Below the pieces are notes generated by a model that was not told the DNA's origin, ran no database searches, and was given only the letters and a program-made list of their open reading frames with translations. This document shows, in pieces, positions 4,285 through 47,206 of a stretch of DNA of 55,873 bases (within the stretch, counting starts at the first letter, position 1; each line of letters starts with the position of its first letter). Made by a program: the position numbers and the translations under genes. Source of the DNA: a virus (taxonomy: Duplodnaviria > Caudoviricetes); IMG/VR virus record IMGVR_UViG_3300025128_000048, positions 1 to 55,873 of that record. One strand, given 5' to 3'.

Positions 4285-4444
4285 GAACTTTCTTTTATTT
4301 AATTACAGATATAGGCAGTTAAAGTGTATTAACAAAGAAAATTTAGTATAGTCTAACTTTAAAATCCATTTAAGTGCTATAGTTAAAGAGTTTTTAAAGA
4401 ATTACTATATAGACATTTAAGTGTAATCACTTTAAGTGTGTTTA

Positions 4445-4483
4445 GTTATACATAATTATACCAGATTTTGTCAAGCCCGTCAA
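4445..4483 (-). promoter_or_regulatory. Tandem overlapping sigma70-type late promoters
   Basis: TTGACG-17-(TG.)TATAAT at 4483-4455 and TTGACA-18-TATAAC at 4474-4445. Confidence 0.75.
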
Positions 4484-24067: not shown

Positions 24068-24101
24068 AAAAGAGCAGGGGATTTAGTCCCCTGTTTTTAT
24101 T
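24068..24101. terminator. Probable bidirectional intrinsic terminator at the convergence point
   Basis: CAGGGGA-TTTAG-TCCCCTG with a T-tract to the right and an A-tract to the left. Confidence 0.8.
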
Positions 24102-32285: not shown

Positions 32286-32491
32286 TACCCAACCCCTACA
32301 AGTACAGTGCCAGCTAGTCCTATTATAGTCACTGTAGATGCCATAATCATAGCTTCTAAACGCCACAGACGTTTATCAACACTTTCTAATTTATCATTCA
32401 TCATTTGATAACGGACAGCGCACTCTTTTTCATGTGCGTCTAATTCCATTTGAACTTTAAGCTCTGGCTCTAAAGATTGTGTTAACTTCAT
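32285..32491 (-). CDS. Small membrane protein
   Basis: HEKECAVRY coiled-coil plus C-terminal TM segment. Confidence 0.75.
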   Translation of the reverse strand: MKLTQSLEPELKVQMELDAHEKECAVRYQMMNDKLESVDKRLWRLEAMIMASTVTIIGLAGTVLVGVG

Positions 32492-32518
32492 TTGTCAATA
32501 CCTAATTTGTATGTTCTA

Positions 32519-42566: not shown

Positions 42567-43625
42567 TTACACTAAGCAGAACCGGGCATTAACAAGAGCC
42601 TCTGGTCGGAGAATCTTGCGCCCATACAAATGCATACCACGAACAATATCAGCGAAGCTGTCAGGGTCACGATATGTCTCAGTCTTGTTGATTTGCTCTG
42701 CGGTAGCAACAGCAGATGAATGTCCACCAACAATCACACCGAAGTTAGAAGAGTTCGTGCCACCTGTGGTAGCAGAGCCTGTTCCAATTTCTGGCAGGTT
42801 GTTTGAAACATACACTTGGAAGCCGTGCAGATTATTAACAACAAGTCCGTTACGAAGTCCACCAGACTCACCGTAGTCTTGGTTCAGAAGTTTTGAATCT
42901 TCGTCCTTCAAGATCTCCAAGAAGACTGGGTTAACAACGAGCCAGCGGCCTTGCGTATCAACATTTTGCTGGTCTAGCTTACGAGCCATACGAGCAATAA
43001 TCATGGTTGGGTTAGCGTTACCTGAACCCGGTACTGCAGAAGCACCCGGTAGGCGTGGCTGAATACCAATACCATTATCTGCTGATCCACCAAAGTCATT
43101 GGCGTCAACTTGCATTTCAGCCAGCAGTTCGTTAGTCCCTGCTGTAGAAATTGCCTTTGATCCATTCACAGTAGTATTTGCTGTGTCAGCAACACTGTGA
43201 AGAGATGATTGCTTAAAGCCGCACATATAGCCAAGAACATCTTGGTCAAACTGGTCGGCTAGGCGATACGCAGCACGGTCACTTGCCAGAGCTTGGAAGT
43301 TCACGTGTGAGTGCGCCTCTTCAATGTCATCAACCTTAAATGCAAAGTAGTTAGCTTTGTCAATTGTTAGGTTGAAATCTTCATCGTCAAGATCTTGCGG
43401 GGTAATAGTTGTACCACGCGCATACGCCTTAACGGTGATTTCGGGTTCCTTGATAATCTTAACGGAATCTCCCATCTGTGCAATCTCACCAAAGTAGTCG
43501 TTATTGGTGATCGCTTCAGCAACAGCACTCTTGCGGAAAGCAAGTTGCACCTGTTTGCTGTAGATAATAGGGGAGAAATTACCGTTGGGAAGATTACCAT
43601 ATCCCGACGCGGTAGTAAATGCCAT
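42567..43625 (-). CDS. Major capsid protein
   Basis: FSPIIYSKQVQ; GEI..GDSVKI; FADIVRGMHLYGRKILRPE. Confidence 0.9.
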   Translation of the reverse strand: MAFTTASGYGNLPNGNFSPIIYSKQVQLAFRKSAVAEAITNNDYFGEIAQMGDSVKIIKEPEITVKAYARGTTITPQDLDDEDFNLTIDKANYFAFKVDDIEEAHSHVNFQALASDRAAYRLADQFDQDVLGYMCGFKQSSLHSVADTANTTVNGSKAISTAGTNELLAEMQVDANDFGGSADNGIGIQPRLPGASAVPGSGNANPTMIIARMARKLDQQNVDTQGRWLVVNPVFLEILKDEDSKLLNQDYGESGGLRNGLVVNNLHGFQVYVSNNLPEIGTGSATTGGTNSSNFGVIVGGHSSAVATAEQINKTETYRDPDSFADIVRGMHLYGRKILRPEALVNARFCLV

Positions 43626-43820
43626 TTCAAATTCTCCTAATTAGCATTTTGACAGATGCAAACTCACGAGACTTTTAGAGGCTGATTTACTTGGGTGCGT
43701 TCTATAATAAGGTGGCCGCCCTACTATACAACGGGCCTTGTCAATCAGGTAATCCGTAAGACTTTGCGGTTTGCTAATAAAGTGTAACTAGGTGCGCAAT
43801 AAAGTTACACTATCTTTGTG
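43626..43820 (-). ncRNA. Candidate structured 5' leader of the capsid mRNA
   Basis: About 195-nt non-coding leader with nested complementary segments (see findings). Confidence 0.5.
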
Positions 43821-43826
43821 ACTATA

Positions 43827-43854
43827 GTTATACTGATAAATAACTATTTGTCAA
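43827..43854 (-). promoter_or_regulatory. Sigma70-type promoter for the capsid gene
   Basis: TTGACA-16-TATAAC. Confidence 0.6.
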
Positions 43855-44512
43855 CACTTTTCTCTTTCGGCACTTCAATAAAATTCATATTCATGCTGAA
43901 AGACCTACGCTCACCCTTTGTGTAAAAAGGATAAACGCAGTGAAATAGTTGTGATGGAAATACGTAGAAGTCACCTACTTGTGGTTTTATTATAAAGTTT
44001 GTACAGGTATAGCCTGAAGCTGTTCCGTATGCAAACTGTATATGTCCGTTAGCAGGATGATGATCTTTGTAATCTTCTTCCCATTCTTCCTCTATTCCAT
44101 CAGGAAGTTTTAAATAACCCACACAAGATAATCTAGCACCCGTGTGAATATGTAATGGATTATATTCATTTTCAAACTGACGTACAAACCAACCTGAAGC
44201 TATTTGTAATCCATAGTTGTTATTTTCTGTATCTAAAGTTTTTGCACCCATAGAGTTTCTATATTCTGTATAGTTTTGATATTTGCCTACAAACTGCCCT
44301 AAACCTTCTTGAGCAATACGTACAATCTCATCATCAAAAGCTAACTCTTCAGAAACTTTACCTACAAGTTGATCAGAGTAGTCTTCTAGTCTGGCAGACA
44401 TTCTATCATTTAGTTTATCTACCAACTCATCTGGCATACGATAATATCCCATCGTAGGCCCAAAGGGTGCAAATAACTGCGTGTCTTTTTCAGGAGTAAA
44501 GATGATACTCAT
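43844..44512 (-). CDS. 2OG-Fe(II) oxygenase-family protein
   Basis: YNPLHIH...FPSQLFHCVYPF...ERRSFSMN. Confidence 0.8.
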   Translation of the reverse strand: MSIIFTPEKDTQLFAPFGPTMGYYRMPDELVDKLNDRMSARLEDYSDQLVGKVSEELAFDDEIVRIAQEGLGQFVGKYQNYTEYRNSMGAKTLDTENNNYGLQIASGWFVRQFENEYNPLHIHTGARLSCVGYLKLPDGIEEEWEEDYKDHHPANGHIQFAYGTASGYTCTNFIIKPQVGDFYVFPSQLFHCVYPFYTKGERRSFSMNMNFIEVPKEKSVDK

Positions 44513-45384
44513 CGTGCTGACCCTGAAATGTCGTAAATAAATTTACCACTGCGTATCGCTTCCATAATGTTATCCGCTTCTTTTTCATATTGTTGCGGTG
44601 ACATTTTTTGAACGTCTGACTCTTTTAAGTAATTAGTCGTTTCGTCCTGTTGTGGCTTACTACGTGTGTTTTTAGTGGCTACAGATTTAGCTGCTGCTTT
44701 ATCTGACTTAGGCTTTTCTTTAATACCCATGTCAGCCTTGTACAAGTCAATAGCTCTAGCAGCAGAACGTGCATCGTTGTCATTGTCATACAGTGCATCT
44801 TGTACCCACTTAGGCTGTTCTTCTGCCCAGTTGTGAAACTCGTCACTGTCACGTATCTCACCAAAGTCAGGGTGCATACGCATTAGTTCTGCTTCTGCTT
44901 TTTCTTTTGTCGCAGTAGTCTGTAGCTCATCAATTGCCTTCATGCGTTCTTCAAGAGCAGTAGATTGCTCTTTAGCTTTCTTCATGGCAATTGTCTCAAC
45001 TATAGCTGCTACATCTGGGTAGTCTGCTGCCCACTGTTCAATGTCCTCATCAGACTTAGGCAGTTTCATTTCTTTCTGTGCAGCTTGACTTAGTTGACTT
45101 TTAAGACTTTCAATCTCTTTCTTAAAATCTTCAGCTTGCTGTTGTTGATGTCTACGCAGATCAGAGTAACGCTTTTTAAATGTTTTCTCTTCTGCATTAG
45201 TAGGTTCAGCTTCTTCGGGTTCAGCAGCTTCTTGTTCTACTTCTCCCTTCTGTTCCTTTATCAACTGTTCTAGTTCTTCTTCTTCCATCTTGCGTTTTTC
45301 TTCGTTAGTGTACTTACGATTTGCAAACGCAACTTTTCTTTGCGGCTTCATTTCTTCAGCCATGATTGTAGCTTCTTCAGCCAT
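44509..45384 (-). CDS. Capsid scaffolding protein
   Basis: Acidic coiled-coil; FKKRYSDLRRH; HPDF; C-terminal IMEAIRSGKF; RBS AAGGA before ATG 45384. Confidence 0.75.
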   Translation of the reverse strand: MAEEATIMAEEMKPQRKVAFANRKYTNEEKRKMEEEELEQLIKEQKGEVEQEAAEPEEAEPTNAEEKTFKKRYSDLRRHQQQQAEDFKKEIESLKSQLSQAAQKEMKLPKSDEDIEQWAADYPDVAAIVETIAMKKAKEQSTALEERMKAIDELQTTATKEKAEAELMRMHPDFGEIRDSDEFHNWAEEQPKWVQDALYDNDNDARSAARAIDLYKADMGIKEKPKSDKAAAKSVATKNTRSKPQQDETTNYLKESDVQKMSPQQYEKEADNIMEAIRSGKFIYDISGSAR

Positions 45385-45397
45385 TGTACTTCCTTTC

Positions 45398-45442
45398 GTT
45401 GGGGCCAACCGTAGCCACGGGGTGGGGGATTAGGTAGCCAAC
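45398..45442 (-). promoter_or_regulatory. Candidate structured RNA leader of the scaffold gene
   Basis: GUUGG/CCAAC enclosing the hairpin CCG[UGGCUA]CGG. Confidence 0.5.
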
Positions 45443-45463: not shown

Positions 45464-47206
45464 TTACGCAGCTTCTTGACGTACTTCTCTGTATCTACCG
45501 TGAACAATATATGTATTATCTTCAGTATATACGTTGAAGCTATTACCATCAATTACGATGGATACCGTTGGTGTCATGCGGTCAATATAATTTAGGGATG
45601 TAACTTTAATACCATTAATAGTGTCTCCTACTACTAACTGTTCTGGAACTATCCAGTCAGCTTTACCAAGACCGCCAGACTTAGCCCATACAGGATGGTC
45701 ATTCGTAATTTCAAGTTCGTTGTTAATTACAAAGTAACCGCTACGCATATGCTTGTGCAGAACTTCTTTCACAACATAACCATCAATCATGTCATCAACT
45801 TTGATGTTTGTTACAAAGTCAATTACACCGTTAAGTTTGACTTTCATGTTTTCTGTCAAGCAGTCTGTGCCTGAACCAAGACCAACATCACCCTGATCCG
45901 TCATACCTTGACCTGCTCTGCCACCTCTATCACCTTGATCGCCTCTATCTTCACCTTCTCTACTGTAGTCACCAAACGCAGTAAAGTCTCTAGCCGTTCC
46001 AGCCGCCTGTTTTGCTTGTTCTTTCATTGCTTCTATTCTTGCTTTTTCAGCTTTCTTAGCTGCTGATCGTCTTTCTGCTAATTCCCGTAAACCTTCTCTT
46101 GCTCTTTCTGCCTTCTCTTTTATTTCTTCATCTTTTTTTGCCTTTTCCTCTGTAGACATACTAACTCTATCAAAGAAAGAGGTAAAACTATCAAATACAG
46201 GTTGACCGAATTGATCTTTTGCTATACTACCATCTGAATTACGAGCCATACCATCTGGACCCATAACAGCACCCGGCATACCCGGTACTGCATCACCCAT
46301 TTCATATCCTACATATCCTGTTGGTGTAATACCCATGCCATTTATAACATCTAGACGTGCTTGAATTTGAGAGGATGTTAATGCGACACGCCCATATTGT
46401 TTTCTATCCGTAGGAGACATGCTCCCGAAAGGGGTCTTTTGACCAGAGGAATCTAAATTAGCAGTGAGTGTATCATAATCAAGAAATCCCGTGCCAGCCA
46501 TAGGTTCTTCTCCAAATGCATACCCCATACTTCCGGGTCTATCTTTTTGAAAACCTAGTTTATCTGCACCTACTTTACCTGCAACATTTAAAGCAAGGCC
46601 CGGTAAACCACCTGAAACTGCCGAAGCAAATGTTCCTAACATGCCTATATCTGCACCTCTAACTCCTGTAGCTCCATATATATCTGCACCCGCTTTAGTT
46701 GCTTCGTTTGAGTCTTTGTATGAAACGCCGCTATACTCAAAAGTAGTGTCTTCTCTGCCGCCCCCATCTTGTTGTGCAACTGTCGTAGGTTGTTGTTGTG
46801 TAACTTGAGTTGTTTGCACAGCAGCGGCTGGATCTCCCTCTGTATATCCGGGTGGTATAGGATAAATAGGATTACCGCCTATAAATGGTATCCGTAAAGT
46901 TTGACCTGCTTCATTTGAATACGTTCTTAATTCATCGTATCTACCCGGAGTAGATGTTCCTAGTTGATCAACAAAACTTGTAGTCGTTGTTGGAGTACCC
47001 ACTGTCGGCACTGTTACCGTAGGCACGTTTGGTACATTAGGGGTAACTGGCTGAGTGCCGGGTAAAGGTGGCGGTGTGTACGTAGGAACTTGGGATTGTA
47101 TTTGAAAAGTACCGGGCTGTTGCATGTTAAATGTTCCAGTCTGTGGATTTACAACCCCACCAGTTTGAAAAGCTAAAACTGTTTGATCTTTTAATGTTTT
47201 ACTCAT
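45464..47206 (-). CDS. Putative internal virion protein with C-terminal Hint domain
   Basis: Block A CLTENMKV, block B ITNDHPVW, EQLVVGD, terminal YIVHG. Confidence 0.7.
   Translation of the reverse strand: MSKTLKDQTVLAFQTGGVVNPQTGTFNMQQPGTFQIQSQVPTYTPPPLPGTQPVTPNVPNVPTVTVPTVGTPTTTTSFVDQLGTSTPGRYDELRTYSNEAGQTLRIPFIGGNPIYPIPPGYTEGDPAAAVQTTQVTQQQPTTVAQQDGGGREDTTFEYSGVSYKDSNEATKAGADIYGATGVRGADIGMLGTFASAVSGGLPGLALNVAGKVGADKLGFQKDRPGSMGYAFGEEPMAGTGFLDYDTLTANLDSSGQKTPFGSMSPTDRKQYGRVALTSSQIQARLDVINGMGITPTGYVGYEMGDAVPGMPGAVMGPDGMARNSDGSIAKDQFGQPVFDSFTSFFDRVSMSTEEKAKKDEEIKEKAERAREGLRELAERRSAAKKAEKARIEAMKEQAKQAAGTARDFTAFGDYSREGEDRGDQGDRGGRAGQGMTDQGDVGLGSGTDCLTENMKVKLNGVIDFVTNIKVDDMIDGYVVKEVLHKHMRSGYFVINNELEITNDHPVWAKSGGLGKADWIVPEQLVVGDTINGIKVTSLNYIDRMTPTVSIVIDGNSFNVYTEDNTYIVHGRYREVRQEAA

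Follow-up and report, generated by a model that had tools for sequence, protein, structure and literature searches.

The major capsid gene of a marine virus is preceded by a structured 5′ leader that is real, conserved among relatives and specific to the messenger RNA (mRNA) strand. The virus is represented by a stretch of 55,873 nucleotides (nt) of DNA (positions 1 to 55,873 of IMG/VR record IMGVR_UViG_3300025128_000048; Duplodnaviria, Caudoviricetes), which in its full length is called the window here, and which is, judged from its sequence, that of an HMO-2011-type marine podophage. The leader lies in a gap of 218 nt (43626-43843, - strand) in front of the capsid gene (42567-43625, - strand), and it contains a promoter-proximal hairpin, P1, a long irregular rod and a hairpin at the translation-initiation region. 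Taken as a whole, the observations are best explained by a three-module cis-acting leader that sets capsid output after transcription, an explanation to which we give about an even chance of being correct; control of capsid translation or of mRNA stability is the most likely role of the leader. An earlier sequence-only reading of the window had assigned the capsid mRNA a long structured leader and listed most of its stems. Covariation and G·U pairs now bear out that leader, and all the stems listed are present at the coordinates given for them, in both the minimum-free-energy (MFE) and the centroid folds. That reading did not include the helix between the leader and the region around the start codon.

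The central module is the rod, a single irregular hairpin of 117 nt with 41 pairs (43658-43774, - strand). Its outer helix joins GCAAAC (43774-43769) to GUUUGC (43663-43658). Intermediate short helices, including GGA (43755-53) with UCU (43679-77), are followed by the helix CUGAUU (43748-43743)/AAUCAG (43687-43682), a GG/CC pairing recognized by covariation (43737-36/43694-93), and the helix CGUU (43733-43730)/AACG (43701-43698). An apical stem of 10 base pairs (43728-43719/43712-43703), two of them G·U, carries the hexaloop CGGCCA (43713-43718), and all of these elements are read on the - strand. The invariant bases of the rod reside in C-rich internal loops. Directly 3′ of the rod, the sequence AUCUGU (43652-43657, - strand) is unpaired in the model.

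To characterize the leader across relatives, a first set of 80 contigs encoding close capsid relatives was assembled; it held 83 loci, of which 5 were too short upstream and 78 were usable, and it gave 75 distinct leaders, the window included. The leaders were analyzed by group because a joint alignment mixes three architectures, and RNAalifold applied to all 75 leaders together returned the 5′ hairpin alone. For the main group, the window fold was projected onto a plain MAFFT alignment of 56 leaders (52 distinct), referred to as A3, and compared with slid controls in which the 3′ partners were moved by 1-3 columns. On A3, 78.4% of rod cells were paired against 30-42% in the slid controls, with 219 double-change cells against 43-72 and a covariation score of 0.284 against 0.053-0.078, a score reached by 0 of 500 shuffles. 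The model-fitted alignment A4 gave 81.4% of cells paired and double changes at 31 of the 41 pairs; across the rod alignments, about 80% of cells were paired (29-43% when slid) and 29-35 of the 41 pairs showed double changes. Mutual information with average-product correction, which uses no fold, ranked the same rod pairs at the top and added the pair G43737-C43693 (GC48/AU8). Near-invariant blocks in the main group are GGAUUACCU, GGCC, CACCC, AGCCUCU and UUUGCAUCUGU, while the cores GA, CC, GCC and CC are invariant in all 75 leaders. The AUCUGU next to the rod is invariant in 56 of 56 main-group leaders on A3. No conserved partner was found for it, and lineage-specific ACAG partners occur; AGAU (43814-11), which pairs with it in one MFE fold, is not conserved among relatives and was rejected. 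A likeness of ACGGAU to a CsrA site was also dropped, since the model places GGA in a helix and two subgroups have AGA instead.

A covariance model of 130 positions and 41 pairs, R1, was built on the main-group rod. In the window it matched once (43650-43777, 129 bits), and over 80 sources (445,095 bases) it matched 57 times in total, at most once per source and always on the capsid strand. A second set, more divergent and likewise of 80 contigs, was obtained via the capsid of phage CRP-1 and was not used for building R1. Here 72 of the 80 loci matched at E <= 0.01 on the capsid strand, all matches ending upstream of the capsid start, which lies at position 401 of each locus. When this set was aligned by fitting to R1, 81.1% of rod cells were paired against 35-43% in slid controls, 35 of the 41 pairs carried double changes, and the covariation score was 0.443 against at most 0.088. 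Individual pairs of the outer helix varied as widely as GC14/AU11/CG8/UA2 and CG22/UA11/AU5. Conservation and covariation in relatives, on which the sequence-only reading had staked its case beforehand, are thus both present, and the folded leader with its compensating mutations extends to over a hundred related phages.

Folding energy contributed less to this result than sequence variation. The 218-nt gap folds with z = -2.08 (6 of 200 shuffles as good), and the interval 43822-43611 with z = -2.77 (1 of 200). Given that the + strand reaches z = -2.68, energy cannot choose the strand; by energy the structure stands modestly above chance, and it is the covariation in relatives that lifts it beyond that. 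On the mRNA strand, the rod contains 164 G·U cells against 71 A·C cells. G·U is almost fixed at two rod pairs (44/52 and 32/52 rows), and the A·C cells concentrate in poorly supported pairs. The conservation of G·U indicates the mRNA (-) strand as the one on which the structure would act.

At the gathering threshold, Rfam 15 (4227 models) gave no match in the whole window or in 20 loci of relatives (99,054 bases). At E <= 10, the interval 43400-44000 gave just four matches, all to eukaryotic small nucleolar RNA or microRNA models (E 1.9 to 8.8), and no riboswitch family of Rfam matched even at that level. A similarity of the most conserved block to the 3′ end of 16S ribosomal RNA was considered and dropped, since no small-subunit ribosomal RNA model matched at E <= 10. 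In the literature on HMO-2011-type and Puniceispirillum phages, no account of the leader was found, and the words "promoter" and "intergenic" are absent from the main text of PMC9038755.

The structure is preceded by a sigma-70-type promoter (43823-43854, - strand), with the -35 element TTGACA at 43854-43849, a 16-nt spacer and the -10 element TATAAC at 43832-43827. This -10 element sits within the invariant block TATAACTATA (43832-43823), first seen when the window was aligned with three isolates; the exact 10-mer occurs once in the window. In the first set, every one of the 78 usable loci carried the pattern TTGACA-N16-TATAACTAT, at a distance of 203-259 nt upstream of the ATG. In the second set, where 75 loci had at least 300 nt upstream and 5 shorter ones were omitted, TTGAC[AT]-N15-17-TATAAC was found in 75 of 75, with a spacer of 16 in 68 and of 17 in 7, 224-330 nt before the ATG. 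A generic consensus scan had missed the capsid promoter because it requires T at the last -10 position. From promoter geometry, transcription would start about 7 nt after the -10 element, at about 43820 (43817-43822, - strand), giving the capsid mRNA an inferred leader of about 195 nt. The sequence-only reading had left room for a start downstream of the structure; the conserved promoter lies upstream of it. Further near-consensus extended -10 promoters of the form TTGAC-N17-TGGTATAAT are located at 32547-32519 (-), within the structural gene block, and at 4483-4455 (-), in gaps of 184 and 367 nt, respectively. The presence of such sites in other gaps of the window makes the phage appear reliant on host sigma-70-type promoters. 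The leaders that follow these two promoters (32367-32515 and 4285-4450), about 150-165 nt in length, have z-scores of -1.4 and -1.2 and are thus not more stably folded than shuffled sequences.

P1 is the first structured module after the promoter (43781-43811, - strand). Its 9 base pairs join AGUGUAACU (43811-43803) to AGUUACACU (43789-43781) around a 13-nt loop with an invariant GC, and its pair probabilities in the window ensemble are 0.83-0.99. Of the 52 distinct relatives, 38 have a P1 that is about as long, and for these RNAalifold found 8 consensus pairs, 7 of them with double changes, such as CG14/GC13/AU10 at one pair and AU22/GC10/UA3/CG2 at another. One pair is U·G in 24 rows, which would be A·C on the opposite strand. 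P1 would begin about 9 nt from the 5′ end placed by promoter geometry (about 6-11 unpaired nt).

The third module is a translation-initiation hairpin (43617-43649, - strand) in which the anti-start sequence AAAUGCUA (43649-42) pairs with UGGCAUUU (43624-17). The latter consists of the UG of the start codon and codons 2 and 3 (UG-GCAUUU), and the loop carries the Shine-Dalgarno sequence GGAG (43637-34) together with the A of the AUG (43625-23). The helix appears in the MFE fold once 15 coding bases are included. Over 60 distinct initiation regions, 84.8% of its cells were paired against 33-44% in slid controls. The third position of codon 2, the sole free base on the coding side, occurs as UA47, AU6, UG1 and other 6, and its 6 double changes were seen in 0 of 500 shuffles. 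Compensating variants are AAAGCUA/UGGCUUU in the HMO-2011 lineage and AGCCA/UGGCU. A conserved helix that includes the start codon, a feature of translational operators, is formed by AAAUGCUA/UGGCAUUU.

The start hairpin has a competitor. GCAU (43659-56) can pair with AUGC (43647-44), and this helix overlaps the closing helix of the rod. In the window ensemble the competitor has a probability of about 0.58, and the state with a closed rod and a start hairpin about 0.40; forcing GCAU/AUGC costs 1.2 kcal/mol. One divergent subgroup follows the same logic, with ACAUUU/AAAUGU beside a different upstream hairpin. A different switch had been proposed from the letters alone, between UUAGCA (43777-43772) and UGCUAA (43646-43641). 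The two are indeed complementary, but the pairing is neither conserved nor favorable and was rejected: its probability is about 0, its forced fold has -49.4 against -54.3 kcal/mol, a cost of about 5, and the UUA flank is variable, only GCA being conserved.

The apical loop of the rod has the form N-GNNC-A, in which the tetranucleotide is self-complementary. All 47 readable loops among the 52 distinct rod rows of the first set are palindromic (GGCC 39, GUAC 4, GCGC 2, GAUC 2); the remaining 5 rows have a shortened apical hairpin that was not read automatically and appears by eye as CCGUACA. Among 60 distinct apical hairpins of the second set, grouped by hand, 53 are palindromic (GGCC 33, GCGC 14, GAUC 6) and 7 are GGCA or GGCG, which are not. 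Self-complementarity of the loop thus appears to be kept strongly, though not strictly. GGCC is present twice in the rod despite its genome-wide depletion (48 against 103 expected). The internal copy (43737-34) is invariant to loop type, with GUAC, GCGC and GAUC loops accompanied by AGCC or GGCC. A pseudoknot between the two copies was rejected, and an intramolecular partner for the apical loop is unsupported, because the internal site does not follow the changes of the loop.

The distribution of the family was explored further with a 15-mer from the rod, which occurs exactly in at least 120 viral contigs. Of 76 new loci examined, 43 have the promoter and a capsid-like open reading frame (ORF). 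Among the other 33, 3 match R1, each preceding a capsid-like ORF, and 30 are unmatched; the latter are taken as chance matches, by a rough estimate of the size of the collection. Among the loci examined, no R1-type copy was seen outside a capsid context, so that the position before the capsid gene is exclusive to that extent. In the freshwater podovirus MW202701, an HNH-type endonuclease gene (829-1514 of the examined locus) lies directly upstream of the capsid gene, and the 3′ half of the rod-like sequence alone is kept. The soil Rhizobium phage RHph_N3_13 has a gap of 155 nt before its capsid gene (1358-1512 of the examined locus), with blocks resembling the conserved cores and a marginal R1 match in the right place (19.5 bits, E = 0.38). 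Judging from this gap, the element may predate the marine phages.

Parts of the window are present in marine metatranscriptome runs of 8 studies, with shares below 0.4 in all 18 RNA runs. Four runs from two studies, X1, X2, X4 and X5, were compared as contigs, which show neither transcript ends nor strand. Contigs of X1 cover 43624-43815, at a depth of 25-33 compared with 0.66-3.8 upstream of 43816; this difference was not used for placing the transcription start. The start codon is spanned by one X4 contig (43469-43659), which extends 34 nt into the leader and more than 150 nt into the gene. X2, X4 and X5 otherwise give little or no cover of the leader, and uncovered contig parts carry no evidential weight. 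Contigs of X1 end at 43680 and 43804, with adapter letters beyond. These ends come from single contigs and may mark one discrete RNA fragment of 125 nt, from inside P1 to an internal loop of the rod. Beyond the presence of these sequences in RNA libraries, the contigs establish nothing.

The surroundings of the leader were compared with those of isolates. A 701-nt query around the leader matched Puniceispirillum phage HMO-2011 with 73.8% nucleotide identity over 43867-43402, spanning the entire gap; several Roseobacter CRP phages also matched, over the capsid start. The capsid protein of the window (352 amino acids; Pfam PF25209, E = 1.4e-9) is 86% identical to that of HMO-2011, and the counterparts in relatives are annotated as coat protein. 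Upstream of the gap lies a gene of the 2OG-Fe(II) oxygenase family (43844-44512, - strand; 222 amino acids; Pfam PF13759, E = 9.8e-18), whose stop codon (43846-43844) falls inside the promoter spacer. It sits between a scaffold-like gene (44509-45408, -) and the capsid promoter, and none was found at this place in the three isolates examined, HMO-2011, CRP-345 and CRP-1. Their coat genes have upstream gaps of 240, 262 and 263 nt, respectively, each directly after the scaffold-like gene. Given that the unit survives the insertion of an upstream gene, the oxygenase gene here and the HNH endonuclease gene in the freshwater relative, promoter and leader can be regarded as one functional module. 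Downstream of the promoter, a co-oriented gene block runs from 43625 down to 24097.

The description of the window as otherwise gap-free was overstated: a crude ORF map shows 16 gaps of at least 90 nt, among which the capsid gap ranks third after those of 367 and 240 nt. A leader peptide was considered and dropped. Over the 75 distinct leaders, the longest sense ORFs have 9-54 codons at shifting positions, and leader lengths fall into every modulo-3 class (23, 21 and 31). Elsewhere in the window, a protein of 580 amino acids (45464-47206, -) has a long low-complexity N-terminal half and no Pfam match at E <= 0.001; by eye alone, its C-terminal part is Hint/intein-like. At the convergence of the + and - gene blocks there is a strong two-way terminator-like hairpin (24070-24098), with 13 pairs for the + strand and 7 for the - strand. 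The tetranucleotide TCGA is absent from the window (0 against 52.7 expected from trinucleotide counts), and GATC (96 against 196) and GGCC are both about halved. These shortages look like avoidance of restriction sites.

The proposed three-module leader would work as follows. A dedicated host-type promoter would produce a leader of about 195 nt carrying P1, the rod and the start hairpin. The rod would serve as a docking platform for a trans-acting factor, tentatively a phage or host protein. The 3′ strand of the closing helix, UUUGCAU, has the anti-start sequence as an alternative partner, so that sequestration of the start codon would depend on the state of the rod; this putative coupling is read from the overlap of the two helices. 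P1 would add stability to the mRNA, and capsid synthesis would be dosed or timed post-transcriptionally. The cis-regulatory RNA named in the sequence-only reading therefore stands as far as a conserved leader structure is concerned, and its regulatory action is inferred. As for the switching it had also suggested, both states exceed 0.2 in just 13 of 74 leaders; switching is thus possible but not a general prediction.

Several observations weigh against this explanation. Not all relatives share the fold: 19 of the 75 distinct leaders, in two subgroups, have no R1 match at E <= 1 and fold differently, though they retain the promoter and two hairpins, one at the 5′ end and one adjoining the ribosome site. 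The freshwater podovirus MW202701 has a gap of 116 nt and a weak R1 match of 32 bits (E = 4.5e-4). The + strand folds equally well, and the folding energy is unremarkable. The transcription start is a putative one, placed by promoter geometry. In two RNA libraries, contigs of relatives extend from upstream of the promoter into their leaders, with loose ends at 43824 (X2) and 43823 (X5), and therefore upstream read-through or carried-over DNA exists. The putative offset of P1 exceeds that of classic 5′-end protecting hairpins of the ompA or T7 gene 10 type, which lie within a few nucleotides of the transcript end. Since its 3′ strand is coding, the start hairpin rests mainly on conservation. 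Its predicted occupancy exceeds 0.5 in 35 of 74 leaders, and that of the upstream competitor in 12 of 74; the limited number with both anti-start pairings was given above. It is also odd that the start codon of a protein required in hundreds of copies should be hidden in the default fold.

The alternatives differ in what they leave unexplained. If the leader merely governed stability or processing, P1 and the rod would block 5′-end-dependent decay or form a site for RNase III or RNase E, with no factor-dependent regulation. A hairpin near the putative 5′ end, a long irregular duplex, a dedicated near-consensus promoter that implies a very abundant message, and the adapter letters at 43804 and 43680 in X1, which may mark a discrete fragment of 125 nt in single contigs, are compatible with this. 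The invariant internal loops, the apical loop and AUCUGU exceed the needs of a passive stabilizer, the conserved pairing of the start codon points to translation, and P1 begins about 9 nt after the putative start. We therefore consider this account unlikely as a complete one. If the leader were a riboswitch, the rod would be the aptamer and a small host molecule its ligand, and binding would shift the balance between closing helix and anti-start pairing and so gate capsid translation. This account would make use of the invariant unpaired bases inside covarying helices. This feature of riboswitch aptamers is found in the rod but is common to protein-binding RNAs too, so it does not discriminate. 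The mutually exclusive alternative also fits, since it overlaps the closing helix and differs little from it in energy in the window, and control would have to be translational because no terminator follows. The absence of any Rfam riboswitch family at E <= 10 counts against it, a single unbranched rod is not a typical aptamer shape, and the controlled gene is always the capsid gene rather than a metabolic or transport gene, which suggests no ligand. Bistability is predicted in the same 13 leaders only, and two subgroups fold differently; a riboswitch is accordingly quite improbable in our estimation. Processive antitermination of the HK022 put type is similarly doubtful. Here a nascent two-hairpin RNA would bind polymerase for read-through of about 18 kb of structural genes, in keeping with two structured modules right after a strong promoter and before the long co-oriented block 43625-24097, and with the apparent use of host-type promoters. 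Against it, terminator-like sites of the intrinsic type number 12 in 43900-24000 compared with 13.7 in shuffles (Rho-dependent sites are not visible in such a count), and the sole convincing site closes the module at 24075-24093. The strong promoter at 32547-32519 restarts transcription anyway, and the start-codon helix is left unexplained.

The apical loop raises a further group of possibilities. The rod may be a self-recognizing RNA, in which the loops of two leaders kiss and the dimer state is coupled via the closing helix to the start hairpin; we regard this as very improbable. If true, one of the most abundant phage groups of the ocean would have an mRNA able to sense its own concentration or to be collected where assembly takes place. 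A functional RNA in its own right, released or acting in trans and pairing with a second copy through the apical loop, for instance in assembly or as a concentration sensor, is a long shot. All four GNN′C palindromes occur (47/47 readable first-set loops and 53/60 in the second set), GGCC is kept in the loop though depleted genome-wide, and the internal GGCC does not follow the loop, which leaves an intramolecular partner unsupported. The 7 of 60 loops with GGCA or GGCG do not fit, no terminator or processing signal follows the rod, and the X4 contig joins the leader to the capsid ORF. An element acting at the DNA level is the least credible proposal, with hardly any chance of being right. In that case the inverted repeats would act as DNA, whether as an origin, in packaging or as the operator of a dimeric protein; the stems are indeed inverted repeats, some of them near-perfect palindromes, beside a promoter, and the + strand folds as well. 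Complementarity is kept while the sequences change, which is the opposite of a protein-binding DNA site. G·U is frequent, and two pairs are almost always G·U on the mRNA strand, which would mean A·C on the opposite one. Conservation of the base that follows the loop tetranucleotide is likewise confined to a single strand.

The preferred three-module leader is thus a candidate new class of cis-regulatory RNA, whether protein operator, riboswitch or elongation element. HMO-2011-type phages are described in PMC9038755 as one of the dominant marine virus groups. No account of their gene expression was found in the literature, and the leader offers a handle on the timing or dosing of capsid synthesis via the host polymerase. 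Furthermore, R1 can be used as a lineage marker in metagenomes and metatranscriptomes. Excerpts of PMC10690425 (2023) report a catalogue of 10,006 candidates for structured RNAs of viruses, drawn from IMG/VR and further collections, among them covariation-supported motifs at most 25 nt upstream of phage genes, with five candidates before PHA00201-type capsid genes. In those excerpts, the candidates are the same kind of object from the same data source as the leader of the window, while the capsid type named there differs. With no Rfam match and no account found in the literature, the motif appears new, although it may be among the candidates of that collection, as far as the excerpts describe it.

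Known systems resemble the leader in part. The leader of T7 gene 10 also has its own strong promoter before a capsid gene in a structural block, a hairpin near the 5′ end and an exposed Shine-Dalgarno sequence. That likeness is one of architecture, with no sequence similarity claimed, and the T7 leader differs in its phage polymerase promoter, its length of about 60 nt and the lack of a second domain, whereas the leader described here has a sigma-70-like promoter, about 195 nt, a rod and a start hairpin. In HK022, the put RNAs likewise form two stem-loops right after the promoter of a long operon; they are about 70 nt long and have no link to a start codon, and in the window there are no evident terminators to overcome. 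The loop of the rod recalls the HIV-1 dimerization initiation site and the phi29 packaging RNA in being self-complementary through identity changes and followed by a conserved A. In contrast to those kissing-loop RNAs, it has only 4 nt, shows 7 exceptions in 60 and lies within an mRNA leader, and the likeness is known from sequence alone. The proposed mechanism also resembles that of the phage translational operators of Mu Com/mom, T4 gene 32, regA and gene 43, and the MS2 coat hairpin, in which RNA structure at the initiation region or just upstream of it governs access to the start and an upstream hairpin can serve as a docking site for a protein. These operators span 20-50 nt and their binding proteins are known, whereas here the candidate dock is a rod of 117 nt and the gene encodes the capsid of a double-stranded DNA phage.

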